This document shows positions 32,595 to 60,724 of a DNA stretch of 64,000 nucleotides, piece after piece. Both the position numbers and the translations under genes were made by a program. Source of the DNA: Candidatus Obscuribacteraceae bacterium (GTDB lineage: Bacteria > Cyanobacteriota > Vampirovibrionia > Obscuribacterales > Obscuribacteraceae). The notes under the pieces were generated by a model. It did no database searches. It was not told the origin of the DNA and was given only the letters and a program-made list of their open reading frames with translations. The DNA lies in assembly GCA_044226015.1 (NCBI GenBank), contig JBGAHS010000002.1, forward strand, positions 979,435 to 1,043,434. The letters run 5' to 3'. The number at the start of each line of letters is the position of its first letter. Position 1 is the stretch's first letter.

Positions 32595-32619
32595 GACGCC
32601 TTGAGCCATCCGCAGTTCC
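32595..32619 (-). promoter_or_regulatory. ECF-sigma-type promoter GGAAC-N16-CGTC
   Basis: Minus strand GGAACtgcggatggctcaaggCGTC, 43 bp upstream of the ATG at 32551. Confidence 0.75.
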
Positions 32620-32827
32620 CAAACATCGCCTAAGAGCATCAGCATGCCCCCACTTTCGACGGACTGCCGAATCCTCCTATTGCCTGATGATCAGAGCTTT
32701 TCAAAGAATTAAGTACGCTCTACATTTTTGCAGCCATATTTTGTTCAATCTGCTTTAATTGTCATTAGCCGACTCGACCAAGGTCTGATCGGCTTCCTGC
32801 ATTATTTGAACAGAGCACCGCTAGACG

Positions 32828-33553
32828 ATGAAAATAAAAAACCTGCTATGGCAGTCAATGCTGCCCGCCATTTTGTGCTGCGTACTTTTACAAGCTTCTT
32901 CCCCAGCCAGACCGAATCTCGCTTCAGTGAATACAATAGGCGAGACCAACTATTCAAGCGACCTGGCTTCAGATGGATATTACACATGGTCACCAGACAA
33001 GTTTCCTTTGAAAGTTCATTTTGCGAAAAATGCAAATACACCAGGGTTCAAATCGACAAATGTGGACCTTCTCAAAAACTGTTTTGATGAATGGTCTCGC
33101 GCCTCAGACGGACGAATAAGTTGGGTCGAAACCCAAAATGCCAACGACGCAGATATTGACGTTGTATGGTCAGACCGAGCTGTTGAAGCCAGCCGCGGTA
33201 CCGAAGCTGGCAACACCAGAAACTACGCCAGATATAACCCGGAAACCAATTGGGGAGAGATTGATCACAGCAGAATGCGCCTACTCACAAGATTACCAGA
33301 ACGCGAATTTACTCCAGTTGAAACCAAGAAAGCCTACTTACATGAAGTCGGACACGCCCTCGGCATAGCTGGCCATTCAGCTGACCCCGATGACATAATG
33401 TACTTTTCTGTTTCAAATCATAAGCGAATCAACCTGAGCTTTAAGGATATAGGAACACTGCATTTCCTTTACGAGAACAAAAATTCGAATTCGAATACGC
33501 TCAGCCACGCGAACGTTTACACCGACAGAGCTTCATCTGTGCATCGACCATGA
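32828..33553 (+). CDS. Exported matrixin-like zinc metalloprotease
   Basis: Signal peptide, HEVGHALGIAGHS zinc motif, DDIMY Met-turn. Confidence 0.88.
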   Translation: MKIKNLLWQSMLPAILCCVLLQASSPARPNLASVNTIGETNYSSDLASDGYYTWSPDKFPLKVHFAKNANTPGFKSTNVDLLKNCFDEWSRASDGRISWVETQNANDADIDVVWSDRAVEASRGTEAGNTRNYARYNPETNWGEIDHSRMRLLTRLPEREFTPVETKKAYLHEVGHALGIAGHSADPDDIMYFSVSNHKRINLSFKDIGTLHFLYENKNSNSNTLSHANVYTDRASSVHRP

Positions 33554-33648
33554 GATGCACGTTCCAAACAGACGGTATCACTCGCTAACCGATACTAATA
33601 GTGATGCTTAGCCAGCACACTTTTCGGGACCTGACTCTAAAAAACTGG

Positions 33649-33673
33649 GGAACTGCACGTTCTCCAGTCCGTC
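33649..33673 (+). promoter_or_regulatory. ECF-sigma-type promoter GGAAC-N16-CGTC
   Basis: GGAACtgcacgttctccagtcCGTC upstream of the DUF2383 gene. Confidence 0.75.
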
Positions 33674-33722
33674 TGCTTTCCACATCCAACACTGGCTTGC
33701 CAGAATGAGGAGAGGAGGAAAT

Positions 33723-34292
33723 ATGAAAGCAAACCTATCGATTAAAGAGATACTCGGGCGCGAATTTCTCGACAATAAGGAGCTTACAGCGCTAAGTGCT
33801 CTTTTAGCGGGCGAGCTCTCAGCGATTCAAGCTTACAATATGGCCATCGACAAAGTGCGCAACAAGCATTTGATACCAACACTCGAAGAATGCCGCAATT
33901 CACATGCACTGCGCGTTCAGCCATTACGTGAGCGAATGGAAGCTCACGGTGCACCGGCACTGCGCAATGCTGGCTGGTGGGGGTCATTCGTGAGCGCTGT
34001 AGAAAACGGCGCCACATTCATTAGCGATCGCGTGGCAATGAGTGTACTTTGCGCTGGTGAAGATTATGGCTTTGAGCAATACGAAAAAAACATGAAAGAT
34101 TTGGATTCGGAATCTTATGAGTTAGTTGATTCAGAGTTACTTCCAGCCCAATCACAGACGCTTCAAACCATGACTCTTCTATGTGCATATTTGAAGTCCG
34201 AAGAGACTAGAATCGCCCAAGAAAACAAACTCAGCCAGGAAGAAACCGAAGATTCTGAGGTTGTGAGCATGAAGAGACCAATTCAAGAATAG
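33723..34292 (+). CDS. Ferritin-like DUF2383-family protein
   Basis: LLAGELSAIQAYNMAI, SHALRV, GWWGSF, GEDYGFEQY; AGGAGG RBS. Confidence 0.78.
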   Translation: MKANLSIKEILGREFLDNKELTALSALLAGELSAIQAYNMAIDKVRNKHLIPTLEECRNSHALRVQPLRERMEAHGAPALRNAGWWGSFVSAVENGATFISDRVAMSVLCAGEDYGFEQYEKNMKDLDSESYELVDSELLPAQSQTLQTMTLLCAYLKSEETRIAQENKLSQEETEDSEVVSMKRPIQE

Positions 34293-34320
34293 ACCGATAA
34301 GAAGCTTGCGAAAATAATCA

Positions 34321-34347
34321 AAGGGAGGTTCAGATTGAACCTCCTTT
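34321..34347. terminator. Bidirectional terminator
   Basis: aagggaggttca-gat-tgaacctccttt between convergent genes. Confidence 0.75.
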
Positions 34348-34348
34348 C

Positions 34349-35668: not shown

Positions 35669-36664
35669 TTAGGATTGATTCAAATCATCAAGAAGTTTTC
35701 GTGCATTAGATGCATGCCCTAGCTTTCTCAATGCAAGACACTCAATTTGCCTCACCCTTTCACGAGAATATCCAAGCGATCGACCCACCTCTGCTAGCGT
35801 CATTGGCACACCATTGGCGATACCATACCTGAGCTCAAGCACGGAGCGCTCTTGGTCGCGCAACTTAGAGAGAAGTCCTCTAATTTTGTCCTTCAAGACT
35901 ATTTTCTGCACAACCTCGTCCGGATTTAGAGAACGACTGTCTTCCACAAAGTCCTTCAACTCTGCATCAAAATCAGCTCGTGGTTTGCAATCAAGCGATA
36001 CCGGCTCTCGGAATGCAGACCATACCGACAACAAAGTCTCTTCGCTTATTCCCGTTTCTTTCGAGATTTCAGGCAACACTGGACTACGACCTAACTTAAC
36101 GCTAAGCTTTTCGACTGCCTTTCTTACAACATTTCTCGTTTCAGATAGGTGAACAGGAACTCTTATCGTTCTGGAATCATTCGATAGTGCCCTCGTTATC
36201 GCTTGCCTGATCCACCAGGTGGCGTAGGTTGAGAACCTGAATCCCTTCTCGGGATTGAATTTCTCAACAGCCTTCAACAATCCCATATTTCCTTCTTGAA
36301 TGAGATCTTGAAAGCTGAGCCCACGGTTCTTATAATTTTTCGCAACACTAACCACGAGGCGAAGGTTCGACTGCACAACTCGCCTCCTCGCGGCATCGCT
36401 TCCTTTCACTACCTGCCGAAACAAATCTACTTCTTCGGACTTTTGCAAAAGTCGATGTTTGCCTATCTCTTTCAAATACACTTTGATTGAATCGCTTTCG
36501 GTTAAAGACATACCCCGAGTTTCGGGCACACTCTCAGGAGCCTCTGGTTCCGTCGTTTCCTCAAACTCGTTTTCCACATCTAGGAAATCGATATCATCGA
36601 GAATATTCGGCGGACCGAAAGAATCATTTACGTCAAAGGTGCTGTTTTCATCTTGTAATTTCAT
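35669..36664 (-). CDS. Sigma-70 RpoD/SigA-family alternative sigma factor
   Basis: DSIKVYLKEIG, NLRLVVSVAK, DLIQEGNMGL, FSTYATWWIRQAI, SRERVRQIE; lacks region 1.1. Confidence 0.92.
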   Translation of the reverse strand: MKLQDENSTFDVNDSFGPPNILDDIDFLDVENEFEETTEPEAPESVPETRGMSLTESDSIKVYLKEIGKHRLLQKSEEVDLFRQVVKGSDAARRRVVQSNLRLVVSVAKNYKNRGLSFQDLIQEGNMGLLKAVEKFNPEKGFRFSTYATWWIRQAITRALSNDSRTIRVPVHLSETRNVVRKAVEKLSVKLGRSPVLPEISKETGISEETLLSVWSAFREPVSLDCKPRADFDAELKDFVEDSRSLNPDEVVQKIVLKDKIRGLLSKLRDQERSVLELRYGIANGVPMTLAEVGRSLGYSRERVRQIECLALRKLGHASNARKLLDDLNQS

Positions 36665-36895
36665 ATCTATCGCCGCTGCAAAAGCGCTGATGTAAAGGAA
36701 TCCACAACAAGATTCGCATGCCCTCCGTAGCTCAGCCATCTGAGTTAGATGAGGTATGCAATCATGTCACATTCTAAGCCTAACATGATTTCGGAAACCC
36801 GCAGAAATGAAGCAAAAAGATTCTCTGCAAAACAGTAATTGACGAACCAAAACAGAAATTCGTAACTGCAAGTAAGCTAGAGCGAGCTCAAGAAC

Positions 36896-37763: not shown

Positions 37764-38876
37764 TCAGCTAGCTGCTCGGTCATCTGACCTATACATACTT
37801 GCATGCTTTGTAATCTGACTGACACCACAAATTTCACCTTCGTGCCTTTCTACGTTTATCAAGTTCATCGATTCAGCAACTTCTTTTGGTACCAGAATTG
37901 TTGCTGCTTGTGGAATAACCGTTACCCTCATTGGAGTTGTAGAATGAAGGTCGCCATCTATCATGCATGGCATTTCAGTAATTCGCGGCTCATCATCTAA
38001 CTTCTCGCGGGTCACAAACTCTACGACTTTCTTAACCATCAACTGAAACGATGAGCGCACTCCGCGCCTGGGCAACACCTCTACGACAGCTTCCTTAACT
38101 CGAAAAAGCATCTCTGGAGCTTTATTCGAAAGGTCTCCCGCAGCATATCGCTTAGTCAGCTGAATAAAGTCCCCCAGCCGCTTAGGATTCATTACATGCA
38201 AATCCAACAACCCATCGGAAAGAAGCCCAATGTCAGCACGTTTTCCTATTCCCAGGTCTTCAACGTTACTCAAAAACACGCCACCTGCCTCGACCTTAAA
38301 TGAGCCGCCCGAAGTAGTAATTCTGAAATGACGACGAGGCCTGGCAATACTGGTAATCAGCGACTTGAAGTAAGCTTTGAGCTTATTTTGGGTCTTTTCT
38401 TCACGTGCTGGCAGCATGAAAGCATCAGCAATGGGTCCGACTCCAGCCATTCCGGCAAAATACTCACCGTTCATCATTCCCATGTCTATTCTCATAGGTA
38501 CGCCATTTTTGATGTATTCATAGGCATTTTTCAGTGGATCGGCCATCAAGTGTTGTTCGATGATACCTATATTCCTTGCCATGACATTGCCAGTGCCCAT
38601 TGGGAAAATAGCCACAGGAATAGAACTCTTTGCTTTGGCGACGGCGGCTAGCGCGAACCTGAGCGTTCCATCACCACCCCCAGCAATGATAAGTTCCAAT
38701 GGATCCTGAATTAAGGGAATCAAGTCATCTGGGGTGGTATGAGCCTCTGTTGGAAAGAAAGATACAAGATATTGATCGTCTTTGTTCAGCTCAGCAACCA
38801 ATTGACCAATCCATTCCTCAGTCTTGACTTGTGACTTGGAGACAGGATTATAAATAACTAGCGCGTGTTTAACCAT
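37764..38876 (-). CDS. Diacylglycerol/lipid kinase family (YegS/DAGK-like)
   Basis: IYNPVS, AGGGDGT, PMGTGN, AGVG, DGLLD, IDGD. Confidence 0.88.
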   Translation of the reverse strand: MVKHALVIYNPVSKSQVKTEEWIGQLVAELNKDDQYLVSFFPTEAHTTPDDLIPLIQDPLELIIAGGGDGTLRFALAAVAKAKSSIPVAIFPMGTGNVMARNIGIIEQHLMADPLKNAYEYIKNGVPMRIDMGMMNGEYFAGMAGVGPIADAFMLPAREEKTQNKLKAYFKSLITSIARPRRHFRITTSGGSFKVEAGGVFLSNVEDLGIGKRADIGLLSDGLLDLHVMNPKRLGDFIQLTKRYAAGDLSNKAPEMLFRVKEAVVEVLPRRGVRSSFQLMVKKVVEFVTREKLDDEPRITEMPCMIDGDLHSTTPMRVTVIPQAATILVPKEVAESMNLINVERHEGEICGVSQITKHASMYRSDDRAAS

Positions 38877-38988
38877 CTCAGAGTTCCCCGGTTTACGTCG
38901 CTATAGATTCACCATCGACTAAGTAGTTCCCAACTTTTAACTCTGTGTTTGGACATGTTTCGCAAACCATCTGGTAAAACTAGTAGTA

Positions 38989-39478: not shown

Positions 39479-39503
39479 GGAACTGAAGTAGTCGACCTGC
39501 GTC
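39479..39503 (+). promoter_or_regulatory. ECF-sigma-type promoter GGAAC-N16-CGTC
   Basis: GGAACtgaagtagtcgacctgCGTC in the short gap upstream of 39550. Confidence 0.75.
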
Positions 39504-39549: not shown

Positions 39550-40320
39550 ATGAATATGCAATTCTCCTTTCGCAATCTCCTTATCATGAGCGTTGTTCCC
39601 GCGGTTTTAGCACTCACGGGATGCAAGGGATTCGGTCAAGTCGACCAGATGTGTTTTTATGGCCCGGTGCCAGATGAAGCCAGAATGAATGAACTAGAAC
39701 ATCTCGGCGTCAAAACGATGGTAGATTGCCGCCAGCGACCTAATCACAAACTCGAGAATGCGCAGCTCTGTGAGAAACACCATATTCAATACATTTTTCT
39801 GAAAACAGGTCTCTATAAAAACCCTGACGAAGCCGTCATGGACAAGTTTGTCACTATGATTAGTGACCCGAAAAATCTCCCCATCTATGTTTGTGATGTC
39901 GCAGCAAAAGATAGAACCCAGTTTTACCTCGCGGTATACCGAATTGCAAAAAATAAATGGACAGCGCAAGATGCATCTTGGAAGATGTACCGTAGCGGGT
40001 TGCGACACTGGTGGCCCTGGTTCTATAAGTTCCCTAGTGTCCTGGAAGCTCACGAGCAAAAATTCAAAAAGGACTTTGACAGACAACACGAACGGGCTCT
40101 CGCTCTTGGTGACAAGACTGACGCTCCGAACGGTCTGGTCTTGAGTAAAACCTCAGACGAGATATTCGCAGAAATGAGTGGCGGCAAAAAAATGAAAAAG
40201 CAGGATAATGAAAAGCGTTCTGTTAGCGAGAAAAAGCCACTCAAAAAAGATGAGCTAGTTGGTCCGAGTGTCATTACCGAAGAAGCTCCAGAGCAAAGCA
40301 GTATTAAGGCTTCTTTGTAA
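39550..40320 (+). CDS. Lipoprotein with DSP-like fold and degenerate active site
   Basis: Lipobox LALTGC; FGQVD, GVKTMVDCR, PIYVCDVAAKDRTQ aligns with the VHCxxGxDRTG motif of its neighbours. Confidence 0.75.
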   Translation: MNMQFSFRNLLIMSVVPAVLALTGCKGFGQVDQMCFYGPVPDEARMNELEHLGVKTMVDCRQRPNHKLENAQLCEKHHIQYIFLKTGLYKNPDEAVMDKFVTMISDPKNLPIYVCDVAAKDRTQFYLAVYRIAKNKWTAQDASWKMYRSGLRHWWPWFYKFPSVLEAHEQKFKKDFDRQHERALALGDKTDAPNGLVLSKTSDEIFAEMSGGKKMKKQDNEKRSVSEKKPLKKDELVGPSVITEEAPEQSSIKASL

Positions 40321-40448
40321 AGCTCTTGAAATAGCAATGTGGCGATAACAAGAAGTAACACGTTACATTTAGTATGGAACAACACCCTCGCGATTTTGCG
40401 AGGGCTCTTGCTTCGCTGAATTTCCTTTTTCGGAGGAGGGCATTCGCA

Positions 40449-41546
40449 GTGCGCTTTTTTGTTTTCTTTACCATGTCACTTTCTCTGGCAATCGCCAGCA
40501 TACCCTCTTCCGAGGCTCAAATGAGCGCTCTGAAAAACTTTCGTATTTCGAGATCTACCAAACCAGCCGAAGGCGAAAATACGCAACGTAGCCGCTATTC
40601 GGGTGATGGTATCAACGCCCCGTTAACTGGTGGCATCGAGCACCAGGAGGAAGACTCCCTGGTATCTCCTGACGAATTCAAAACGCTGCCAGCAAAATCG
40701 GACAGTTATAGCCGACCATTGTCAGGAATGACAGATAACACGCAACTAAGAGCGAACACCGGCATGAGCAACCTTCGCTCAGGTACAGATGCGTTTAACC
40801 TTAAATCTGGTTTGCTCAACAAAGTTTTGCCCTTGATCCAGGGAAATCCAACAGAAGACGCACTGCCTCCGCTGCCCAAGCTTCACGCAGACGTAAACAA
40901 CGACGAACTAAAAGTTCTCAAATCACGAGACATCGTGATCATGCAAGATCGATCAAGTTCAATGGGAGAGCGTGAAAATTTTCCTGAGGGAATGTTTCCG
41001 CGCTGGTACTGGTGCTTATCGCAAGCGATGGATTTCCGCCGACAAAGCGCACGAATCCCCGACTGGACCTTCAATCTAGTAATGTTCTCCAGTCAATATG
41101 ACGTTTACCGCAGCGTTCGCATGGAAATGCTGCCCACGGTCTTTTCTCGCAATCACATATGGATCGGAACAAAATTGGCCGAGCCTATGGCACAACAACT
41201 GGGAGAGTACTTCCAAAAACGAGGAATGCAGAGACAAGCGAAGCCGCTCGTAGTAGCAGTTATCACCGATGGCAAGCCACAGGATGAAAGCAATCTCAAA
41301 GATGTAATCATAAACGCTACGCACCAAATGCGATACCCGACAGAGGTTCAAATTGTATTTCTTCAAGTTGGAACAGACGATGAAAGCTACAAGAAATTGA
41401 GTAAGCTGGATAATCGATTGGTCTCAAACGGTGCAAAATATGACATTGTAGGCGTAATGCCGTTCAATGAGGTGACGCGCCTTGGGCTTGCAAGAGCACT
41501 CGTTAAAGCTGTGCAGACAGTGCCACAAGCTATGCCGCGCTATTAG
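40449..41546 (+). CDS. Exported vWA-domain protein
   Basis: Signal peptide, MIDAS DRSSSM, VITDG, FLQVG. Probable GTG start after GGAGG. Confidence 0.8.
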   Translation: MRFFVFFTMSLSLAIASIPSSEAQMSALKNFRISRSTKPAEGENTQRSRYSGDGINAPLTGGIEHQEEDSLVSPDEFKTLPAKSDSYSRPLSGMTDNTQLRANTGMSNLRSGTDAFNLKSGLLNKVLPLIQGNPTEDALPPLPKLHADVNNDELKVLKSRDIVIMQDRSSSMGERENFPEGMFPRWYWCLSQAMDFRRQSARIPDWTFNLVMFSSQYDVYRSVRMEMLPTVFSRNHIWIGTKLAEPMAQQLGEYFQKRGMQRQAKPLVVAVITDGKPQDESNLKDVIINATHQMRYPTEVQIVFLQVGTDDESYKKLSKLDNRLVSNGAKYDIVGVMPFNEVTRLGLARALVKAVQTVPQAMPRY

Positions 41547-41589: not shown

Positions 41590-42714
41590 TCATCCTAGCT
41601 GACGACGGAAACGCCACGCACTGATACTCAATAAAACGGAAGCGCTGATGATCAGAAAGGCGACGTTTGGTAGCAGAACGTCCCACGATGCACCTTTCAA
41701 TAAGCTTTCTCGCACAAACAGAGTAAAGTAACGCAGTGGGTCAAGCTTAGAAAGGCTCTGCAGGAAAGCTGGCATACTTTCAAATGGCACCACGCTTCCA
41801 GACAACTGTATGAGTGGAATACTAATGAAAAAGGACGATAACTGCGCCTGCCGTTGACTTGAGCAAAACGTTCCTAACAGCATCCCGAAACCGATGCAAG
41901 AAACTATGTAGGCTGATGCTCCCATCAGGAAAACCAGAGGATTGCAGAGGAAAGGTAATCCAAAGAACATTCTAGACAAAAGCAAGGCCAAAGTAAGATC
42001 GCACACGAGCAAAAACACCAGGGGCAAAATCTTGGCGAGAATAATCTCTCCTGCCGTAGGTGGAGCCATCAGCAATTGCTCAAGAGTACCATGCTCCTTC
42101 TCCCGCAAAAGCACTGCAGAAGACACCAGTGTTCCAACCACAGTCAGGACAGCACCTAAGACACCGGTGACAAAAAACCAGCTGCTCTTCAATCCCGAAT
42201 TGAATAACATCTTCGTTTCAATATCGACAGCAGGCTTGTGCTCTTCATTAATGTCGGATGGATTGAAATGAGCAGCAATGTCTTTGAGATAAGCTTTGGC
42301 AACATTTGCTGTGTATGCGTCAGTTCCATCAAGAATGGTTTGACTCTCAAGGATATTTTCCTTATTGTATTTTTCTGCAAAATCGCTTGGGATAATCAAG
42401 GCCGCAGAAGCCTTTCCTTGCTCAACCATCTTGTAAGTCTGGTCAGGATTGTTCATTCTCTTGATTGGATTGAAGACTGATGCAGAGCTAAACGCATCTA
42501 CATAATCTCTGCTAATGGCAGTATTGGATTGGTCACAAACTGCAAGACTTAAGTTGTGCAATTCTGGATCTAGAGAAGCAGAGAGAATCAATAACTGCAC
42601 AGTCGGCGGAACAAGCAAAAGATACAATAAAAGCTTGTTTCGCAGTGTCTGCCTGAACTCCTTTTTTACGAGAGCCCAAAGCCTTGAACCTAAGATAGCG
42701 TCAAAAATATTCAT
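41590..42714 (-). CDS. ABC-2 exporter permease (YbhR-like)
   Basis: KKEFRQ, REKEHGTLEQL, LSGSVVPFESMP, DPLRYF. Confidence 0.9.
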   Translation of the reverse strand: MNIFDAILGSRLWALVKKEFRQTLRNKLLLYLLLVPPTVQLLILSASLDPELHNLSLAVCDQSNTAISRDYVDAFSSASVFNPIKRMNNPDQTYKMVEQGKASAALIIPSDFAEKYNKENILESQTILDGTDAYTANVAKAYLKDIAAHFNPSDINEEHKPAVDIETKMLFNSGLKSSWFFVTGVLGAVLTVVGTLVSSAVLLREKEHGTLEQLLMAPPTAGEIILAKILPLVFLLVCDLTLALLLSRMFFGLPFLCNPLVFLMGASAYIVSCIGFGMLLGTFCSSQRQAQLSSFFISIPLIQLSGSVVPFESMPAFLQSLSKLDPLRYFTLFVRESLLKGASWDVLLPNVAFLIISASVLLSISAWRFRRQLG

Positions 42715-42722
42715 ATGCGCAT

Positions 42723-43826
42723 CTATTCCTTAAACTTCATCTGGCGCCAGGAAAACCAGGAAATCGAAAAAAGTCCCAAGCAAAACAAAATCAAAACTGT
42801 AATATCCTGAACAACTGCGAAGCCGCCCATTCCGCGCTCGAACGAGTCGCGACTTACTTCAATGAAATATCGGGCGGGTACAAGATAAGAGAACAAAGAC
42901 AACGGGAATGGAATATTGCTGATTGGATAAACGAACCCAGACAAAAGCAAACACGTAAAAAACCCCAAACTAGAAACGCCCTGAACTGCATTGCTCTGCG
43001 AATTCGCACACGAACCCAGAGCCATGCCAAACAAAACAGAGCACAGAACATAGATGGGCAATGCAATAAAAAACAACGGCGCACTCGCAAGAAAATGCAG
43101 CCCAAAAATAAAGGTTGCAAGACTGATGATTATCACAGCCTGAGCCAAACCTACGAGTGTGTACACAAGGGCCTTTCCCAGAACAAGCTCATGAGCTTTT
43201 ATGCTAGAAACGAAAACTTGAAGTACCGTCCCCTGCTCTTTTTCTCGCGCCATTGCAACACAAGCCAACAGAGATGGAAACATCCAGAGCACAATGCCGA
43301 AGACTCCTGGCACTATGAATAGCGACTCCTTCAAGCCTGGGTTGAACCACACTCGCAAATTTGGCTTAACCTGAACAGGGGGCTTGTCTATACCGTTGGC
43401 CAGGACAAAATAAGTGCAGGCTCCTCTTATAGTGGCATCTATCAAACGGGCATTAACGATATCAGTGCCATCCACCGAAACGTCAATTGATGTTGGACTC
43501 TTCGATAACAACTTGCTCTCAAAATCTTGAGGTATTGTCACGCTAGCTTTGGTTTCGCTGGCAAGCTCTTTCTCTACTGAAATTGCCTTATCAGCATCTT
43601 GTATGTGCAACGTGTTGGTTGCTTCTAGCCTTTCAATAAATGCTCTGCTGGCAGTAGTCTTACTGTTATCATGCACTGAAACTAAGACGTTATGAGATTG
43701 CATTCGGACTCCAAAGCCAAAGAGCAATAGCGTAATAAGCGGTAGCAGGAATGCCAATGAGAGACTCAAGCGATCGCGTTTGAACTCGCACCACTCTTTA
43801 AGCGCTTGCTCCAGGATATGTCTCAT
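42723..43826 (-). CDS. ABC-2 exporter permease (YbhS-like)
   Basis: WFNPGL, FIVPG, AREKEQGT, LSGFVYPI, PARYF. Confidence 0.9.
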   Translation of the reverse strand: MRHILEQALKEWCEFKRDRLSLSLAFLLPLITLLLFGFGVRMQSHNVLVSVHDNSKTTASRAFIERLEATNTLHIQDADKAISVEKELASETKASVTIPQDFESKLLSKSPTSIDVSVDGTDIVNARLIDATIRGACTYFVLANGIDKPPVQVKPNLRVWFNPGLKESLFIVPGVFGIVLWMFPSLLACVAMAREKEQGTVLQVFVSSIKAHELVLGKALVYTLVGLAQAVIIISLATFIFGLHFLASAPLFFIALPIYVLCSVLFGMALGSCANSQSNAVQGVSSLGFFTCLLLSGFVYPISNIPFPLSLFSYLVPARYFIEVSRDSFERGMGGFAVVQDITVLILFCLGLFSISWFSWRQMKFKE

Positions 43827-46695: not shown

Positions 46696-46715
46696 CTTTG
46701 GCTCCGAAATGTGTA

Positions 46716-48089: not shown

Positions 48090-48165
48090 ATTCCTCTCCC
48101 TGAATATACGATTTTTTGTATGCTCCGGACAGGACAACCCTGCCCGGAGCGTGTACCGCGAACCC

Positions 48166-49218
48166 TTAATAAGGCTTCGTCAGTCTCCAACCAATCTGGT
48201 CTTTTCTACGCAGTCTCAGATAATCGCTTTGCGGTGCGTTCTGAGAAGCGACGGTCAGTTCTTTCACGGACTTACCGATATCGTCACGAACCTCTCTCAA
48301 ATCTGCGATAAAGAGAGCAGGCTCTGGATCCTCAGGATGCAGCAATTGTGCTTCTCTGTAGCGAACTAACGCAGCCTGATCAAGCCCCTTACTTTCCATA
48401 GCTTCCCCCAGGGCGAGATGAACTTGCGCATCATCATGGTCTAACCATCGAGCAGACTCGAGTTCAGAAATTGCTTCCTCGACTCGACCTTGCTTAAGCA
48501 AGGATGTACCGAGACCATAATGTGCACGCTGATTATTTGGTTCCATAGCAAGCGCTCTGCGGAACTGAATTTCTGCAGCCTCAGGGTCACGCTTCATCAT
48601 CGATTGGAATCCGTCATCACGCACGCTGGCGGAGCTGACCATGTCGAGTTGAAGTTCTGGACGAGCCTCGTTTGCAGCATGGTTTAGACGAGCTGCTTTC
48701 CATTGCGCTCTCTTGAATGGAGGCGAGTAAGGCGCGTACAAATAGTCGCCAGACAACTGGGCGACGTAATTGTTGACTTTCTCACCGTCAGCAAGAGCAC
48801 TTCTAAGATTAGCAGCCCACTCATCTGCGAGCGCCTCCATCGAAGTACCGTTCATTGCGGCGAGGTTTGAGTCGATAGTGAGTACGTGCTTGCCACCTAC
48901 GCGAATAACCGGTAAGTGATTAACAGTCACGATCTCGACTGCCGACGGTGAACGATCCTTGCTCGAAATTAGAGCGTTGTTCAGATTGCGTTCAATAATC
49001 GTGCTTCTTTCTTCGGCGGTAAAACCACCTGCAGCAGCCCGAATAGTGAACACATCTGTTCCAGCGCAACGAACTGGACTAATCGCCGAGCTAATATAAC
49101 CTTTCTGGATAACAATTTTTTCAGTGCTCGTCTGCACTGTCTCTGCCGATGCCGGCAACGCGGCTACTGCCGTAAACAGTGCCAGAGCACTAAGAATAAT
49201 TTGATTCTTGCTTCTCAT
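48166..49218 (-). CDS. Exported protein with N-terminal alpha/beta domain and C-terminal TPRs
   Basis: Signal peptide (ASA), TPRs RAHYGLGTSLLKQG and QVHLALGEAM; AGGAG RBS. Confidence 0.8.
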   Translation of the reverse strand: MRSKNQIILSALALFTAVAALPASAETVQTSTEKIVIQKGYISSAISPVRCAGTDVFTIRAAAGGFTAEERSTIIERNLNNALISSKDRSPSAVEIVTVNHLPVIRVGGKHVLTIDSNLAAMNGTSMEALADEWAANLRSALADGEKVNNYVAQLSGDYLYAPYSPPFKRAQWKAARLNHAANEARPELQLDMVSSASVRDDGFQSMMKRDPEAAEIQFRRALAMEPNNQRAHYGLGTSLLKQGRVEEAISELESARWLDHDDAQVHLALGEAMESKGLDQAALVRYREAQLLHPEDPEPALFIADLREVRDDIGKSVKELTVASQNAPQSDYLRLRRKDQIGWRLTKPY

Positions 49219-49278: not shown

Positions 49279-49303
49279 GACGCGGGGCCACCCTTCCGGT
49301 TCC
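49279..49303 (-). promoter_or_regulatory. ECF-sigma-type promoter GGAAC-N16-CGTC
   Basis: Minus strand GGAACcggaagggtggccccgCGTC upstream of 49218. Confidence 0.75.
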
Positions 49304-50875: not shown

Positions 50876-50900
50876 GGAACCACAAAAATGAATTGCCGTC
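50876..50900 (+). promoter_or_regulatory. ECF-sigma-type promoter GGAAC-N16-CGTC
   Basis: GGAACcacaaaaatgaattgcCGTC upstream of 50966. Confidence 0.75.
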
Positions 50901-50965: not shown

Positions 50966-51286
50966 ATGGGCAACTGCTGCAACAACAGCGATAAGAGTTC
51001 TTACGAAGGCGATATGGAAGCGCGTCTTGCAGAACTTGGTAAAAACATAGATAGCTTCGTCGAGAAAGCTGCGGAGAAAGCCGACAACTCCAAATGTCAG
51101 GCACTTGATGCACTCAAACAGAAGCGTGACGAAGCAACATCTAAATTGAAAGAACTCAAAGAATCTGGAAAAGATGCTTTCTCAGAACTAAAAAAAGGTA
51201 CGGATAGAGCCTGGGAAGACCTGCTCTCTGCCTGGGATGAAATGAAAGTCGCTGGCGATCAAGCGATATCGAAGTTTCAACACTAA
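50966..51286 (+). CDS. Small coiled-coil stress-type protein
   Basis: MEARLAEL...LKQKRDEATSKLKELKESGKDAFSELKKGTDRAWEDL amphipathic helices; GGAGG RBS. Confidence 0.8.
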   Translation: MGNCCNNSDKSSYEGDMEARLAELGKNIDSFVEKAAEKADNSKCQALDALKQKRDEATSKLKELKESGKDAFSELKKGTDRAWEDLLSAWDEMKVAGDQAISKFQH

Positions 51287-51296
51287 ATAAAAAACT

Positions 51297-51326
51297 GTGC
51301 TATCCGACGACTTAATCGGATAGCAC
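51297..51326. terminator. Intergenic hairpin (terminator or mRNA-stabilising stem)
   Basis: gtgctatccga-cgacttaa-tcggatagcac. Confidence 0.55.
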
Positions 51327-51361
51327 TCAAATTTTCTTTTCGGTTATTGGAGTATTTCAAA

Positions 51362-52828
51362 ATGGATCTCATATCATACAGAGGACCTGGTGTTGCAGGT
51401 GGTGTCTCGTCGGGTCTCGGCGCTGTGTGGATTGGACAACAAGAAACACAATCTCGTTGGTACTACATCAACAAAGAAGTATTTGAGATGCGCCAATCAG
51501 ACGAGCAGCGCAGCAAATTTATAGCCATGCTACCGGAGGCTATGATTGATGGTCATTACCGTTATTGCAACGAATTAATCTGGCCTATCATGCATGACCT
51601 GCCGGAGCATGCGTCGTACAACGCTGACCAACACTATCAATACAACGCATTTAACAAATTGATCGCAGAGCAAATTGATGTTGAATCGCCAGGCTCGAAT
51701 AAACATTTTGTTCAAGACTATCAATTAGCTTTAACACCTCAGTGGCTCAACCTGCATGGTCACCACTCCGTTGTTTTCTGGCATATTCCCTGGCCCAAAA
51801 ACGTGCCAGATGAATTTGTAGAACCTATTAAAGAGATTGCCCTCGGACTGCTGGGCGCCGACGCCGTAGGCTTCCATACAGATGAATATGCAAAAAACTT
51901 TCAACAATTTGTGAGCAAGCACATTCGCAACCACCGCGTTGTACCGCAAGCGATGGCGATCATAAATGAGTCACAAGCGTGGCCACCATTTATGAACAAA
52001 TCAACGCGAATGGGTCACAAAGCCTTCGTTATGCAAGAGCCTAACTTCGTACCCAGACACAGCAACGTCTGCCAATTAGTTGTACACCCGCTCGGCATTG
52101 ACTTCAAATACTGGCAGGACATGAGCGAAACACCAGTTGCTGAAGAGACACGAAGCAGTCTTGCATCACTTACAAACTGCGATTTTATTCTCTCGGTTGA
52201 CCGCGTCGACTACACAAAAGCTGTATTTGACAGAATTCTTATAGTAGATAGATTCTTCAGAGACAACCCAGACCTCGTGGGCAAGGTCACATTCGCGCAG
52301 GTGTCGGGACGCTCGCGAGCAGGACTGCCAGCCTTTGATAAATACTGGACTGATTGCAAAGCCTTGTATGCAGCGTTGAATAACACCTGGAAAACCGAAG
52401 ATTGGCAACCTCTGGTGTGGATTGACCAAGCACTAAAACCATCAGACCTCGCTTATCTCTATCGCCACGCAAAAGCACTCATGGTAAACGCAGTAAGAGA
52501 TGGACTCAACTTAACCGCTAAAGAGTACGTCGCTTGCCAGGAAAACAATCCAGGCGTTCTACTACTTTCACCAGGTGCTGGCGCCTGGGACGAGTTAGGC
52601 GAATACGCTCTTCCCACTCACCCAAAGAAACCGGAAGAAGCAGTTCAGTCTATTCTGCAAGCGCTCTCAATGCCGCTATGGGAACGCCACCAAAAAAGCC
52701 TAAAAATGAAAACGTCGATTGCTGGAAATCAACTCACCCACTGGTGGGATCTATTTAGTCAGATCGCACACGCTCCGATGCCTGCAGCATTGGAAGAGGT
52801 GCATACGAAACATGCTCAGCTGGGTTAA
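51362..52828 (+). CDS. otsA: GT20 trehalose-6-phosphate synthase-like protein
   Basis: AGG, IWPIMH, VQDYQL, FWHIPWP, SVDRVDYTK, RDGLNLTAKEYVA. Confidence 0.85.
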   Translation: MDLISYRGPGVAGGVSSGLGAVWIGQQETQSRWYYINKEVFEMRQSDEQRSKFIAMLPEAMIDGHYRYCNELIWPIMHDLPEHASYNADQHYQYNAFNKLIAEQIDVESPGSNKHFVQDYQLALTPQWLNLHGHHSVVFWHIPWPKNVPDEFVEPIKEIALGLLGADAVGFHTDEYAKNFQQFVSKHIRNHRVVPQAMAIINESQAWPPFMNKSTRMGHKAFVMQEPNFVPRHSNVCQLVVHPLGIDFKYWQDMSETPVAEETRSSLASLTNCDFILSVDRVDYTKAVFDRILIVDRFFRDNPDLVGKVTFAQVSGRSRAGLPAFDKYWTDCKALYAALNNTWKTEDWQPLVWIDQALKPSDLAYLYRHAKALMVNAVRDGLNLTAKEYVACQENNPGVLLLSPGAGAWDELGEYALPTHPKKPEEAVQSILQALSMPLWERHQKSLKMKTSIAGNQLTHWWDLFSQIAHAPMPAALEEVHTKHAQLG

Positions 52829-52865
52829 CCAGTTGACGCAAATAAAGGGAGAATAAAAAACAAAT

Positions 52866-54740
52866 ATGAGAACCAAGAATAAAGGTGCGTGGCTCGTACT
52901 CGCAGCAACCCTTTTGCTATCAGTCAGTTCAGCTGCTATTGCGGCTCCGGCTGGCATGCAAGTAACACCATTTCGTGATGGAAAGTTATTCAAGGGTAAT
53001 GTTAGCTACCATGTATCTAGAGCAGAGAATGCACTCATAAACGGCAGCTATCAAAAGGCTGAGACTTCTTTCCGTTCAGCGATAGCAAAGAACCCGAGGG
53101 ATTATCGGGCCAGGGCCGGGCTGGGATTAGCACTTGCAATGCAATTCAAATTGGATGGCGCTGAGGACCAGGTTGATAGGGCTCTAAAACTTTCACCAAA
53201 AGACGCTCTTGCTCACACAGCAAAAGCTATGGTGCTCATGAATCGGTTGCAATCCTCTTCTGGAACTGTTATGAGAAATCGCCAGTCGATTTTATCGCAA
53301 GCAGAGCAACACGCTCGTGAGGCAATCAATTCAGATCCTAATATGCCTGAAGCACGGTTCATGATGGGGTCTATATACAAAGAAGAGGGTCGCTTAGCAG
53401 ATGCTAGCCGAGAATTCGAAAAAGCTTGCGATTTGGACCCGCACTATTCGTCAGCACAATCGGCTCTGGGTCTGAGTTATCTTGCACAGGGCAAGTTGGA
53501 CGATGCTAGCAACAGCTTCAAGCACGCAATAGCGATCAAATCGAAAAACAGTACCGCCCATTACGGGCTGGGGAAAGTTTACCTGCAGAGAGGCCAAGCC
53601 GACGCAGCTCTCAAAGAATTAAATACTGCGTTGTACCTCAATCGCAACAGCGCACCAGTACAGATTGCGCTGGGTGACACCTACACCGCACAAGGAAATA
53701 CTGTGGGTGCGTTGAAATCTTATCAGGAAGCCATTCGCATAAAGCCAGAGAGCCCCGATGCCTATATGCGCATTGCCGATATAAGAGAATCTCGCGTCGA
53801 CCTTGAGCACGCTATCGCCGAACTTCACTCTGGACTTGCGATGAATCCAGATAGCATCGAATTACACAATCGAGTCGGTGATATGTCACTCAAGCTTGAA
53901 AAACTCGATGATGCAATCAAAGAGTACCGTGCCACTCTGGCAGTCGACCCAGGCAACATTCAAGCTGTGGATGGTCTAACAACTGGTCTTTATTTGAAGA
54001 CTCAAAAAGAAGGTCAAGGTGCATTCTTTGTCAGCGATGATTATGAAAGCGCTCAACAAAATATAAAAGAAGCGATCACATTGGCACCCAATAATATGAT
54101 GCTAAGACTAGCTGATGCAAAACTCAGAGCACTTTCTGGACAAGAGATAGATCTCAAAGCGATCGGTGAACCCAGAAATGACGGAGAGCGTGTAGCATAT
54201 GCAGAAGCACTGATGAGCCAAAATCGCTTCGATGAGGCAAGTCAGCAGTTCGGAGCGCTGATAGTCAATGCACAAAATGCTAAACAGACCTTTGCCGTGG
54301 CAGATCTAGCGTTAATGCTAAAAGACCTCAACAGTGCACAGCTAGCCTATGCAAAAGCGAAGACTTTTCCTGGCTATGAAGAACGCGCAAAGCGAGGAAT
54401 GGCAAAAATTGCAAAGGTAAAAGAAGAGTCAAGACAGCATCTAACAATGGCAAAAGACTTTTATAAAAAAGGTCAATACAATAGCAGTGTCGATCAATAC
54501 AGAGCGGCAATTTACAATAACCCCAAGGATGCAGCAGCAAGACTGGAGCTTGCAGAAGCAATACAGAAAACACATCCTAATGCTGATTTGATGCGTGACG
54601 TAGCCAATCAATATCGCGCATACCTGGCGCTAAGTCCTACACTGGAACAGAAGGAACAGGAGAAATTTAAAAAGAAGATTGCCAGTGCAGAATCGAAAGC
54701 GTCAAAGATTGAACATCGTGCAATAGCACGGCAGCGCTAA
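52866..54740 (+). CDS. Exported multi-TPR protein
   Basis: Signal peptide and many canonical TPRs (AHYGLGKVYLQRG, VQIALGDTY). Confidence 0.88.
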   Translation: MRTKNKGAWLVLAATLLLSVSSAAIAAPAGMQVTPFRDGKLFKGNVSYHVSRAENALINGSYQKAETSFRSAIAKNPRDYRARAGLGLALAMQFKLDGAEDQVDRALKLSPKDALAHTAKAMVLMNRLQSSSGTVMRNRQSILSQAEQHAREAINSDPNMPEARFMMGSIYKEEGRLADASREFEKACDLDPHYSSAQSALGLSYLAQGKLDDASNSFKHAIAIKSKNSTAHYGLGKVYLQRGQADAALKELNTALYLNRNSAPVQIALGDTYTAQGNTVGALKSYQEAIRIKPESPDAYMRIADIRESRVDLEHAIAELHSGLAMNPDSIELHNRVGDMSLKLEKLDDAIKEYRATLAVDPGNIQAVDGLTTGLYLKTQKEGQGAFFVSDDYESAQQNIKEAITLAPNNMMLRLADAKLRALSGQEIDLKAIGEPRNDGERVAYAEALMSQNRFDEASQQFGALIVNAQNAKQTFAVADLALMLKDLNSAQLAYAKAKTFPGYEERAKRGMAKIAKVKEESRQHLTMAKDFYKKGQYNSSVDQYRAAIYNNPKDAAARLELAEAIQKTHPNADLMRDVANQYRAYLALSPTLEQKEQEKFKKKIASAESKASKIEHRAIARQR

Positions 54741-54799: not shown

Positions 54800-55042
54800 C
54801 TATTTAAGGCGACTTCCGTGCCGATGCCTATGTAGCGAAAACGTTTCCGTCAAACCAAGTGTTGAACTTCTAATTGTATTTGCTAGATCACCTGCGCAGC
54901 CTGAGTGTCCGCAGTCACAGGTATCCGATACTGTGGCATGCCTGCACTCCTCACTGCAATAACTATCGCTCAAATCAATTTTGCACGAGCAGCATGCATG
55001 CTTGCATCTGCTCTCCTCATCAAAATTACCAAAAAATTCCAT
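54800..55042 (-). CDS. Bacterial metallothionein-like Cys-rich protein
   Basis: CKHACCSC...YCSEEC...CDCGHSGC, comparable to the YCSEAC and CGHTGC motifs of SmtA. Confidence 0.65.
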   Translation of the reverse strand: MEFFGNFDEESRCKHACCSCKIDLSDSYCSEECRHATVSDTCDCGHSGCAGDLANTIRSSTLGLTETFSLHRHRHGSRLK

Positions 55043-55066
55043 TTCAGATTACCTGCATCTGACTGA

Positions 55067-55101
55067 CTAGAAAGCCAATTTTTCAGAAACTGGCTTTCTA
55101 G
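55067..55101. terminator. Intergenic hairpin
   Basis: ctagaaagcca...tggctttctag. Confidence 0.6.
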
Positions 55102-55123
55102 AGTCAACTAACTAAACTTGTGT

Positions 55124-55402
55124 TTAGTAATAAGGATAGTAGCTGGTGCCCCATCCGTTATTGCCCCATCCATATGGGTTTCCGTAGAAAGCACGATTAT
55201 TGTAGGAGTAATTACCCCAATTCATATTTCGTCGCCACGAATTATTCCAATTGTTTCGATGGTGATGATTCCAGCCGTTGTTGTAATTTCCCCAGCCGCC
55301 ACGATAATGATGATGATCATGCGCCTCTGCTTTAGGAATTGCTAAACCAACAGTTAGTGCCGCCAGCGAGAATAGTAGTGCTTTCTTCATTAGACTCTTC
55401 AT
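55124..55402 (-). CDS. Small exported His/Gly/Asn/Trp/Tyr-rich protein
   Basis: Signal peptide ending AEA, low-complexity mature part; AGGAGG RBS. Confidence 0.8.
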   Translation of the reverse strand: MKSLMKKALLFSLAALTVGLAIPKAEAHDHHHYRGGWGNYNNGWNHHHRNNWNNSWRRNMNWGNYSYNNRAFYGNPYGWGNNGWGTSYYPYY

Positions 55403-55440: not shown

Positions 55441-55465
55441 GACGACTCCCCCTTCCGAAGGTTCC
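55441..55465 (-). promoter_or_regulatory. ECF-sigma-type promoter GGAAC-N16-CGTC
   Basis: Minus strand GGAACcttcggaagggggagtCGTC upstream of 55402. Confidence 0.75.
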
Positions 55466-57232: not shown

Positions 57233-57315
57233 GCATTGATTTCGAAATTGAACCTTCTGTCAGCATAGGAACCTTCTTCTAGCGTCCGCGCCATGAATTA
57301 CAACCAAGGAGGACG

Positions 57316-57843
57316 ATGGAAATGATTGAAATGTTCGTAGCAGGTATCACCATGGACCAAGCCCATTCCTGTCCTATTCTTGTTCTAATCGACGCTCAAA
57401 AGCAGCGCGCTCTACCCTTCTGGATTTCACCAACCGATGCCAGTTCAATGCTCTCATCCTTGAGTGGAGATCAGCATAGTCGCCCAATGACGCATGAACT
57501 TACTATCGACATCTTGAATAACATTGGCTGGCAAATCGAAGATGCAGAAATCAACGAAGTGAAAGATGATGTACTGATGGCAAGTTTACGTTTAAAACCG
57601 CGTGAGGGATCGCCCATTGAAGGTCTGGATGATCTGGTTATTGATGCACGCCCATCTGACGCTGTTGCATTAGCTCTAAAAGCTCAAGCACCAATACTGG
57701 TATCACTAGAAATCGTAGCAAACGCAACTATTCCAGCAGATTTTAAGAAGGACAAGAATTCGGCAGAACAATTTGAACGCTTTGTTCAAGATTTGAAAGC
57801 ATCTGATTTCAATACAATAACCAAACGAGAAAGAGGCTCTTAG
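57316..57843 (+). CDS. Bifunctional nuclease (DUF151) family protein
   Basis: RALPFWI, RPMTHEL, IDARPSDAVALAL. Confidence 0.9.
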   Translation: MEMIEMFVAGITMDQAHSCPILVLIDAQKQRALPFWISPTDASSMLSSLSGDQHSRPMTHELTIDILNNIGWQIEDAEINEVKDDVLMASLRLKPREGSPIEGLDDLVIDARPSDAVALALKAQAPILVSLEIVANATIPADFKKDKNSAEQFERFVQDLKASDFNTITKRERGS

Positions 57844-58853: not shown

Positions 58854-58883
58854 GTTAGCGCTGTGAGCTTGAAACTGAAACAT

Positions 58884-58908
58884 GGAACTGCAGAAATTGC
58901 TTCTCGTC
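58884..58908 (+). promoter_or_regulatory. ECF-sigma-type promoter GGAAC-N16-CGTC
   Basis: GGAACtgcagaaattgcttctCGTC upstream of the cupin gene. Confidence 0.75.
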
Positions 58909-58942
58909 GCAGAACAAAATGCGAACACAGAGGAAGAATTCT

Positions 58943-59290
58943 ATGCACGATACAAGTATTACAAAGGTCAACTCTAACTTCTCTCCCACTGGCAAAATGG
59001 GGCAGAAGTATCTTGCCTCAGGCGTGAGCGTTTCTATGCGCCTCTGGAATGAAGAGCCCGCAGAAGAGCAAAAAGAGTTTAACAGTCGAGATTACGAAAC
59101 AGTAGGTTATGTTCTAAAGGGTCGCGCCGAATTGCATATAGAAGGACAGATGGTTCTTTTGGAAGCTGGGGATTCGTGGGTTGTTGCGAAAGGGGCGCTG
59201 CACAGCTACAAAATCCTGGAGAGTTTTTCAGCTGTGGAAGCAACAGCTCCACCTGCACATGCACACGCGCGTGACGAACAGGCAACCTAG
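58943..59290 (+). CDS. Cupin-domain protein
   Basis: GQKYLASG, YETVGYVLKGRAEL, GDSWVVAKGALHSY. Confidence 0.88.
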   Translation: MHDTSITKVNSNFSPTGKMGQKYLASGVSVSMRLWNEEPAEEQKEFNSRDYETVGYVLKGRAELHIEGQMVLLEAGDSWVVAKGALHSYKILESFSAVEATAPPAHAHARDEQAT

Positions 59291-59293
59291 AGT

Positions 59294-59638
59294 CTAGGCT
59301 GATTTAGCTCTATTGCTGTTAACTCTGGAGAAGTATTTCTCAAGGTGAATAGAAGTAAGAGCATTTACTGTTTCTGATATGTCTGGATGGTTTGATGGCA
59401 AGTTCTTGCGCTCAATCTCCAGACATTTCATTAGCAACTGCTCAGCTTTTGAGTAATTCTCAAGCGCAAAATACAGCATGCCGAAGTTATACATAGTCGT
59501 GGTGAGGTTCAAGCTGTCTTTGCCCCACTTCTTTTCTTCCATAGAAAGCACTACAGTCCACAATCTTTCCGCAGACTCGTAGTCACCGATTTCTTCATAA
59601 CGCTCAGCTCGCGCAGTTAAATATGAGAGCGCATCCAT
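59294..59638 (-). CDS. Small TPR protein
   Basis: MYNFGMLYFALENYSKAEQLLMKCLEIERKNLPSNHPD kinesin-light-chain-type TPR. Confidence 0.8.
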   Translation of the reverse strand: MDALSYLTARAERYEEIGDYESAERLWTVVLSMEEKKWGKDSLNLTTTMYNFGMLYFALENYSKAEQLLMKCLEIERKNLPSNHPDISETVNALTSIHLEKYFSRVNSNRAKSA

Positions 59639-59887
59639 TTACCAAATACCCCTGCTTCACAACGTCATAAGAATATAGCTTGTAATTCGAGTTTATAGAT
59701 CAAAGATTAGGGATTGCACTAGTATTTGATGCTCAATCCCTTAACTCAAGATATACAATCGATACCGATCGAGATCCACTTGGACTGCGCCTTGGCAAAA
59801 ATAGGAAAAAAGAAAGCGGGCATTAAGTCCCGCTAACTGATTCGATCAATTCAAATTGCTTCCTAACAACCTAACCGCTAACCGCGA

Positions 59888-60400
59888 TTACTTATCTACG
59901 TCAGGTCCAGTCCCTGTATCCGGAGCGATGTACATCGCCCCCCACAAATCGCGATCGATGAACTCTTGTTCTGATTCTTTCGAAATATTCCTGAAGGTCT
60001 CTTCGACGCATTCTGGGCTGAGATCGCTATAAAGCGTTATATCAGCAGTTGAAACAATGCCTTGAATTTTGTGCTCGCTATCAAGAACTGGTATTCGCCT
60101 GACCTGTTGTGCTCTCATCAACTCAGCAACTTTATCGACCTCGTCATCTGGTCCACACCAGACCACCGGCGTGTGCATCAGTTGATCTAGCCTTGTCGCC
60201 TTCGGGTCTTTGCCATCGGCTATTACAGCCATACACAAATCTCTGTCTGTAATTACCCCGACAACCCGATAGCTTTTCTCATTCTCGACAACTGGAATTG
60301 CACCAATGTTGTGTTCCTTCATCCTCTTTGCGGCGACGTCGGCTGTTTCCGTTCCGTAACAGCAGATCGGATCGACCGTCATGATTTCATGCACCTTCAT
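59888..60400 (-). CDS. CBS-domain pair protein
   Basis: MKVHEIMT, IGAIPVV, GVITDRDL, QVRRIPV, GIVSTADI. Confidence 0.92.
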   Translation of the reverse strand: MKVHEIMTVDPICCYGTETADVAAKRMKEHNIGAIPVVENEKSYRVVGVITDRDLCMAVIADGKDPKATRLDQLMHTPVVWCGPDDEVDKVAELMRAQQVRRIPVLDSEHKIQGIVSTADITLYSDLSPECVEETFRNISKESEQEFIDRDLWGAMYIAPDTGTGPDVDK

Positions 60401-60428
60401 GTCATGTCCTCCACTTTGCGAAAACTTA

Positions 60429-60453
60429 GACGGAACAATTCGTTAGCAGTTCC
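60429..60453 (-). promoter_or_regulatory. ECF-sigma-type promoter GGAAC-N16-CGTC
   Basis: Minus strand GGAACtgctaacgaattgttcCGTC upstream of the CBS gene. Confidence 0.75.
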
Positions 60454-60518
60454 GGAACCAAATTGCCCAAAGCTAGTCTTTATCCAGGTCGTTTAATAAG
60501 GTAAATGGGGATCGAACA

Positions 60519-60722: not shown

Positions 60723-60724
60723 GA

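Follow-up and report, generated by a model that had tools for sequence, protein, structure and literature searches.

Which sigma factor reads the element GGAAC-N16-CGTC, which occurs eight times in a 64,000-nucleotide stretch of a Candidatus Obscuribacteraceae bacterium genome, and does the element mark out a self-contained stress island? The stretch (assembly GCA_044226015.1, contig JBGAHS010000002.1, positions 979,435 to 1,043,434 of the forward strand; hereafter the window) belongs to a genome of 8.19 Mb, 92% complete, that we call G000; C1, C5, C7 and so on are its contigs, G001 and higher numbers are relatives, and L numbers are loci examined. Our analysis suggests that the SigG (ECF25-like) family of extracytoplasmic function (ECF) sigma factors likely reads GGAAC-N16-(C/A)GTC as a promoter. 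The island is not self-contained; it is where a genome-wide regulon of about 90 predicted promoters reaches its highest density.

The exact element was found eight times in the window, compared to a mean of 0.32 and a maximum of 3 in 100 dinucleotide shuffles; the preliminary description of this locus had estimated roughly 0.5 chance copies. All eight coordinates and strands given there were reproduced, every site is intergenic and in sense orientation at 28 to 65 bp from a start codon as described (individual distances in Table 1), and the first 32 kb contain no exact site. Four near matches had also been proposed; those at 38906, 57268 and 60454 are in promoter position, and the YegS and BFN homologues in relatives G001/G007 have a site too, while the one at 35451 (GGTC) found no support. 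Pfam searches confirmed the GT20 trehalose-6-phosphate synthase, DUF2383 (the ferritin-like target), CBS, and cupin targets. The window indeed lacks an ECF gene, its sole sigma factor (35669-36739, minus strand) having regions 1.2, 2, 3, and 4. Window positions 48000-61500 are covered, with 79 differences, by a single unbroken contig of an independent study (run X2), and this segment is therefore no assembly artifact; runs X5-X7 cover the stretch in pieces only.

Genome-wide, with 5848 genes called in G000 for this analysis, the exact element occurs 82 times (62 intergenic) compared to 25-55 times at other spacers, and 54 copies have a sense start 10-250 bp downstream versus 0-5 at spacers 10-15 and 17-24. 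The preliminary description had proposed a search for enrichment in upstream regions; run with spacer controls, it gave 92 copies of GGAAC-N16-NGTC in promoter position, whereas spacer 17 gave 19 and spacers 12-15 and 18-21 gave 3-14. The NGTC sites are strand-polar and lie a median of 50 bp from the start, and AGTC (27 copies) ranks second after CGTC among the -10 variants. A pyrimidine-purine start signal after GTC showed no clear peak among the genome-wide sites (17-35 per position). The sites are also clustered, with 22 of the 92 core sites in C1:1.011-1.086 Mb (75 kb), whereas 2000 random gene draws reached at most 7. The cluster runs about 45 kb past the window, to a window-equivalent position of about 106 kb, and the remaining 70 core sites are outside it. 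The clustered general-stress island first proposed thus stands as to its clustering and its stress gene content, but not as a self-contained unit.

Beyond the window, the cluster includes hemerythrin, CBS, PBP1A, HAD-GH65, Ku, LigD, YtxH, ABC1 kinase, Gfo/Idh, and patatin genes. Sites outside the cluster precede CsbD, an aquaporin, and two group-2-like sigma factors, and another lies 365 bp before a further group-2-like sigma; the site at the group-2-like sigma gene C11:1374560 is kept in 4/4 relatives, which were themselves chosen by site similarity. General-stress genes with sites in G000 encode CsbD, hemerythrin, YtxH, ABC1, Gfo/Idh, GH65, and MIP proteins, and the Ku gene follows a site at a distance of one gene; in relatives, Ku, catalase, DUF4142, and BON genes have sites. 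The recruitment of exported proteins claimed earlier is borne out by a crude heuristic, by which 48 of 90 targets look signal-bearing versus 23% of all genes.

Sites are conserved upstream of homologous genes in relatives. An N16 site was present within 300 bp upstream of 10/13 cupin homologues (one more with N17), 5/10 DSP homologues (the five closest), 9/29 DUF2383 homologues (two more with N17), and 4/13 TPR homologues (two more with N17), compared to 0-2 each at control spacers. With N19 as the control spacer for whole genomes, N16 counts were higher in 22 of 24 family relatives, and the two exceptions (4 versus 8 and 4 versus 5) have no SigG-like hit. Contig C18 of G007 is syntenic with the window's island including its flanks, with 16 of the 24 genes of L190 matching C1:1.00-1.09 Mb. 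In G001, one island has 17 sites in 40 kb and encodes Ku, LigD, CsbD, DUF2383, hemerythrin, and ferritin-like proteins, and a second has homologues of the window's DSP, YegS, HlyD, and trehalose-6-phosphate synthase genes, each with a site; only the gene content of these regions is informative, given that they were picked for site density. The site lists of G012, G016, and G021 showed no dense cluster.

The ECF25 target promoter combines GGAAC at -35 with GTC at -10, and the studied member is Nostoc SigG (PMC7826278, PMC8155712); ECF23 is a Firmicutes group, and SigG is ECF25 (PMC7826278). The 92 promoter-position sites have this published combination, in agreement with the ECF-type promoter proposed earlier. 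The consensus of EcfG, to which the preliminary description had assigned the motif, is GGAAC-N16-CGTT (PMC7083833). That variant has 2 promoter-position copies versus 55 for CGTC. The best match in G000 (92% complete) to the PhyR-like profile NF006623 (PRK09191), which we take to represent PhyR, scored 46.5 bits against a cut-off of 240. Given that CGTT is not enriched and that no PhyR-like match exceeds the cut-off, the motif is not of the EcfG type. By its GGAAC and GTC boxes, the predicted promoter is of the cyanobacterial SigG/ECF25 type and native to the phylum; for the sigma factor, sequence identity and conserved segments serve as a proxy that suggests membership in ECF25.

The candidate ancestral SigG of G000 is encoded on C7, and the sigG stop overlaps the start of the anti-sigma gene (Table 1). 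The best matches of this SigG (up to 92%) are from Candidatus Obscuribacterales/Melainabacteria, with a few entries under other taxa, and it is 50-56% identical to single-copy ECFs of other classes of Cyanobacteriota, which bear the motif and are presumably SigG as well. The region 2 segment NxFYDELRxR and the region 4 segment GTVKSRIARAR are common to SigG, nearly all of its paralogues, and the other-class cyanobacterial SigG, and the other ECFs of G000 differ in both segments. An autoregulatory copy of the motif, which the preliminary description had suggested looking for among the ECF genes, was not found upstream of G000 sigG, but an exact copy is present inside the gene, at codons 148-156, 159 bp 5' of the stop and before the anti-sigma gene. 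The in-gene motif is exact in 88 of 89 distinct sigG orthologues (32-64% GC) and has AGTC in the remaining one; the 89 were drawn from 110 loci and are related sequences, so they are not 89 independent events. No other synonymous position of the gene is as conserved as the four synonymous bases that build the site (99-100%); other Pro codons of sigG are 30-43% conserved at the synonymous position and same-residue codons elsewhere vary freely. An upstream motif in addition to the in-gene copy was present in 27/89 orthologues. Among 25 sigG loci from other classes of the phylum, which we infer to be oxygenic cyanobacteria, the motif lies 127-152 bp upstream in 24 and at the in-gene codons in none; two of the 25 contain an N17 match at another place in the gene. 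In four small-genome relatives, the site was present neither upstream nor inside the gene.

Obscuribacteraceae genomes contain 0-5 additional SigG copies with 42-67% identity, and G000 has two intact paralogues (C11:1011766 and C5:136041) and a degenerate one beside csbD. The in-gene site is present in 0/28 paralogues, and a ZAS (HxxxCxxC) gene adjoins 0/27 that could be checked. The ECF25 hallmark, an anti-sigma at +1 with a zinc-binding domain and a membrane segment, was found for SigG and not for the paralogues. In G000, a GGAAC site lies upstream of the C11 paralogue only, at -270. The paralogues keep their region 2 and 4 segments nearly unchanged, the degenerate copy excepted, and such residues determine ECF specificity (PMC7776599). 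In a quick tree, computed without bootstrap and with six long rows left out (four other ECFs, L172, and L183:10143), the paralogues group with Obscuribacterales SigG (SH-aLRT 90), provided that the root lies outside; given the nature of this tree, we claim no order of events beyond that grouping. Loci chosen solely for a paralogue (n = 20) had 33 sites in 384 kb, compared to about 5 expected at the rate of G000. The syntenic island of G007 and an island of G001 each include a paralogue, as do islands of G019, G020, and G023. Paralogues and DUF2383 co-occurred at first in 12/12 versus 0/8 genomes and, as predicted beforehand, in 23/24 versus 5/16 of 40 new genomes. In 10/60 relatives, csbD and a paralogue are no more than 4 kb apart, and CsbD is a weaker co-occurrence marker than DUF2383. 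The regions preceding the paralogues have a TAGGGGTTT/AAACCCCTA-like box in common, in most cases 120-170 bp from the gene (L158, L170, L171, L186, L190, L194, L195). We regard the TAGGGGTTT-like box as a lead for a possible transcriptional regulator of the paralogues, presumably NarL-like.

These observations, which cover motif statistics, clustering, conservation, gene content, and co-occurrence, are consistent with the following scheme. SigG family holoenzymes very probably start transcription at GGAAC-N16-NGTC sites. The membrane anti-sigma factor would hold back the ancestral SigG (C7:19045-19674) until SigG is released; free SigG would then drive transcription of envelope genes and, via the in-gene promoter, of more anti-sigma, resulting in negative feedback. 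In the Obscuribacteraceae, sigG may have been duplicated, with the copies losing the adjoining anti-sigma gene and the in-gene promoter while keeping the DNA-reading residues. The paralogues could then switch on a general-stress arm comprising trehalose synthase, DUF2383, CsbD, hemerythrin, CBS, cupin, Ku, and small exported proteins, and would likely be under transcriptional control through their common upstream box. That duplicated, anti-sigma-less SigG copies took over the general-stress regulon is the reading we favor, with moderate confidence. A fuller version is more tentative, and we put it at a little under an even chance: the lineage would have evolved its own general stress response by SigG duplication, the copies traveling with CsbD/DUF2383/Ku/trehalose islands and running them from the old SigG promoter, and every SigG-family protein would also fire the codon-embedded promoter, so that the three-domain anti-sigma dampens the whole family.

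Several observations weigh against the takeover by paralogues. The island of G000 lacks a SigG copy, no site at all occurs in 9 of the 20 paralogue-centered loci, and many island genes lack a site of their own (LigD, ferritin-like C1:1062669, PTE, and the group-2 sigma). The co-occurrence counts are confounded by kinship, genome size, and incompleteness. CsbD is present in 44/60 genomes, 5 of them without a SigG-like hit, and among csbD loci of genomes with SigG, a loose site lies no more than 1450 bp away in only 13/26. The site excess per Mb overlaps between paralogue genomes (2.3-8.8, n = 17) and SigG-only genomes (1.2-6.2, n = 5), and G014 (65% complete), with no SigG-like hit, has an excess of 2.7 per Mb. 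ACCCCTA is present in 9/28 paralogue upstream regions versus a background of 1.1%, a count that includes near kin and that makes the box a lead only. G012, the SigG-only genome considered below, has 12% contamination, and its genes were called with a model trained on G000. Promoter function, the pairing of sigma with site, and the inducing signal are all deduced from sequence.

The strongest competing explanation, which we consider unlikely though far from negligible, is that every site is read by the anti-sigma-paired SigG and by no other sigma factor; the island would then be an enlarged envelope-stress regulon, and the paralogues would be minor, silent, or drifted in specificity. The sole direct sequence link to a sigma factor is the site inside sigG, over half of the targets look exported, and both the paralogue-free island of G000 and the persistence of some site excess in SigG-only genomes fit this explanation. 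However, the paralogues retain their DNA-reading segments, sit in the islands of five relatives, and track DUF2383. Moreover, in SigG-only G012, where 10 of the 49 exact sites fetched are in promoter position, the targets are PBP1A, Spy/CpxP-like, and TPR/exported proteins, with no general-stress family among them. It is very improbable that another ECF, C1:118313 or C10:281235, reads the motif. Both genes are intact and have ZAS anti-sigmas, and -35 GAAC boxes are common to many ECF groups. Nevertheless, both proteins differ from SigG in regions 2 and 4, and C1:118313 has a different upstream site, TGAAC-N17-CGTT, which forms a class of its own with 20 promoter-position copies. A recently acquired foreign block with EcfG-like promoters is slightly less credible still and already largely refuted. 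The gene set does resemble alphaproteobacterial EcfG regulons (csbD, catalase, mscS, and ku-ligD), and blocks are shuffled between relatives, but the composition of the cluster is typical of the genome (GC 46.0%; GC at third codon positions, 44.5 versus 46.2%; tetranucleotide distance, rank 26 of 102 bins). In addition, the -10 box is CGTC, most sites are outside the island, G007 has the same flanks, and no NF006623 match exceeds the cut-off. Least probable of all is that the motif is another regulator's binding site or chance. The sites are known as sequence only, and 24/116 of the NGTC sites between genes are not followed by a sense start in the next 250 bp, but the two boxes keep a constant distance of 16 bp, have strand polarity, lie close to starts, and are identical to a published ECF promoter class.

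The motif type, an internal anti-sigma promoter, and stress islands are known from other bacteria; the SigG assignment, the in-gene promoter, and the paralogue link are added here. In Escherichia coli, the rseA promoter P3 lies within rpoE. As with this sigmaE-dependent promoter (PMC8595263), the sigma's own promoter type would drive the anti-sigma operon without the sigma gene, but the ECF group and phylum differ, and support here comes from synonymous-site constraint. Nostoc punctiforme SigG/SapG (ECF25) is alike in its GGAAC + GTC promoter, its +1 anti-sigma with a zinc-binding domain and one membrane segment, and its envelope-type targets (PBP1A and exported proteins). Unlike in that system, the site here is inside sigG before the anti-sigma gene rather than upstream, the anti-sigma contains three zf-HC2 units, as many as five orphan paralogues occur per genome, and about 90 sites extend to general-stress genes and islands. 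The alphaproteobacterial EcfG/NepR/PhyR system (ECF15) shares the -35 GGAAC, the 16-bp spacer, a comparable regulon size (79 units there), csbD, ku-ligD, catalase, mscS, and envelope genes, and paralogous sigmas with a common promoter; in contrast, here the -10 is CGTC/AGTC, the sigma is SigG-like, and neither a PhyR-like match over the cut-off nor a partner switch is evident (PMC7083833). The PA2134-PA2192 island of Pseudomonas aeruginosa is likewise a co-induced stress cluster of about 60 genes with trehalose synthesis and metallothionein, but it is described as controlled by quorum sensing/RpoS (AlgU in the preprint title) and not by a SigG-type ECF, and it belongs to an unrelated lineage (PMC3224232; bioRxiv 10.1101/523126). 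A literature search on Melainabacteria/Obscuribacter sigma or ECF factors found no such regulon, with most subscription papers outside the search.

Our findings propose a sigma family for about 90 predicted promoters of an uncultured lineage and point to a likely stress role for about 48 exported proteins, many of which have no family assigned. The feedback wiring also appears to differ, with the site upstream of sigG in oxygenic cyanobacteria and inside sigG before the anti-sigma gene in Melainabacteria. If the paralogues run the island, the non-photosynthetic sister group of the cyanobacteria would have gained a general stress response through duplication of an envelope-stress ECF, a route distinct from those of RpoS, SigB, and EcfG.

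Table 1. Features of the window part of the island, in window coordinates, and of the sigG locus on contig C7.
Feature	Position	Strand	Remarks
Three tandem small exported Val/Glu/Pro-rich proteins	31010..32551	-	32144-32551, 31488-32096, 31010-31465; no Pfam family
GGAAC-N16-CGTC predicted promoter	32595..32619	-	43 bp 5' of 135-aa exported protein; divergent layout with sites also in G006:C21 (L344)
GGAAC-N16-CGTC predicted promoter	33649..33673	+	49 bp 5' of DUF2383
DUF2383 protein	33723..34292	+	PF09537, E 4.5e-7
Group-2-like sigma factor, not the ECF	35669..36739	-	No motif upstream; orthologue in G007 island
YegS/DAGK lipid kinase, near-match target	37764..38876	-	G001 homologue has CGCC site
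GGAAC-N16-AATC near-match promoter	38906..38930	-	29 bp 5' of YegS/DAGK
GGAAC-N16-CGTC predicted promoter	39479..39503	+	46 bp 5' of DSP-like phosphatase
DSP/PTP-like protein with lipoprotein-like leader, then VWA protein	39550..41546	+	
Exported TPR protein (48166-49218), second TPR, HlyD adaptor, ABC ATPase, two ABC-2 permeases	41590..49218	-	
GGAAC-N16-CGTC predicted promoter	49279..49303	-	60 bp 5' of exported TPR protein
GGAAC-N16-CGTC predicted promoter	50876..50900	+	65 bp 5' of coiled-coil protein; G020 homologue has site
106-aa coiled-coil protein, trehalose-6-phosphate synthase (GT20), TPR protein	50966..54740	+	G001 synthase homologue has own site
92-aa exported Asn/Trp/Gly-rich protein, then 80-aa Cys/His-rich open reading frame (ORF)	54800..55402	-	No Pfam match
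GGAAC-N16-CGTC predicted promoter	55441..55465	-	38 bp 5' of 92-aa protein
GGAAC-N16-CGCC near-match promoter	57268..57292	+	23 bp 5' of BFN nuclease; G007 homologue has site
Bifunctional nuclease (BFN/DUF151)	57316..57843	+	PF02577
GGAAC-N16-CGTC predicted promoter	58884..58908	+	34 bp 5' of cupin
Cupin	58943..59290	+	PF07883
CBS-pair protein	59888..60400	-	PF00571 x2
GGAAC-N16-CGTC predicted promoter	60429..60453	-	28 bp 5' of CBS protein; back to back with 60454
GGAAC-N16-AGTC predicted promoter	60454..60478	+	40 bp 5' of 67-aa Zn-ribbon ORF
67-aa Zn-ribbon ORF and nitroreductase	60519..61387	+	Nitroreductase homologues behind sites in G001, G007
SigG anti-sigma	C7:18152-19048 = L010:266-1159	-	Three PF13490 stretches; one hydrophobic segment near C-terminus, by eye
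Candidate ancestral SigG-like ECF gene	C7:19045-19674		Anti-sigma gene start overlaps sigG stop

Within the window, the three exported proteins at 31010-32551 likely share one transcript; they are built from short VIEKPVV-like repeats, and their homologues form a conserved block in the same order in L344 of G006. The genes at 41590-49218 possibly form one operon, and the HlyD gene of G001 has a site of its own. At 36959-40320, the YegS lipid kinase is flanked by three DSP/PTP-like phosphatases, and this block together with an ABC exporter recurs in G001 and G006. The 80-aa Cys/His-rich ORF (54800-55042, minus strand), missed by the gene caller, looks metallothionein-like by eye and had no Pfam match at E 0.05. 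Small LRV/HEAT-repeat proteins (window 30401-30910, plus strand; L167, L168) are recurrent in or near islands and beside many paralogues. Nine group 1/2-type sigma genes are present in G000, two of them inside the island (window 35669-36739, minus strand, and L009). The GGAAC-N16-GGTC match at 35451-35475 (plus strand) was rejected as a gene promoter, with no called plus-strand gene within 3.5 kb; it is antisense to the end of the group-2 sigma gene and may be a source of antisense RNA or a chance match.

Elsewhere in the genome, three zf-HC2 units stand in tandem in the SigG anti-sigma, and two are present in the anti-sigma of ECF C1:118313. An AGTGTTA(A/C)CAT element conserved upstream of sigG (L098, L018, L020, L030, L059) is possibly an extended -10 housekeeping promoter. 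A second ECF-type class in G000, TGAAC-N17-CGT(T/C), has 20 + 14 promoter-position copies versus 0-4 at neighboring spacers; a copy of this class lies ahead of ECF C1:118313 (L011). A possible third class, GGAAC-N18-TCTA, has 26 intergenic copies in G000, 11 of them in promoter position versus 1-3 at spacers 15-17.

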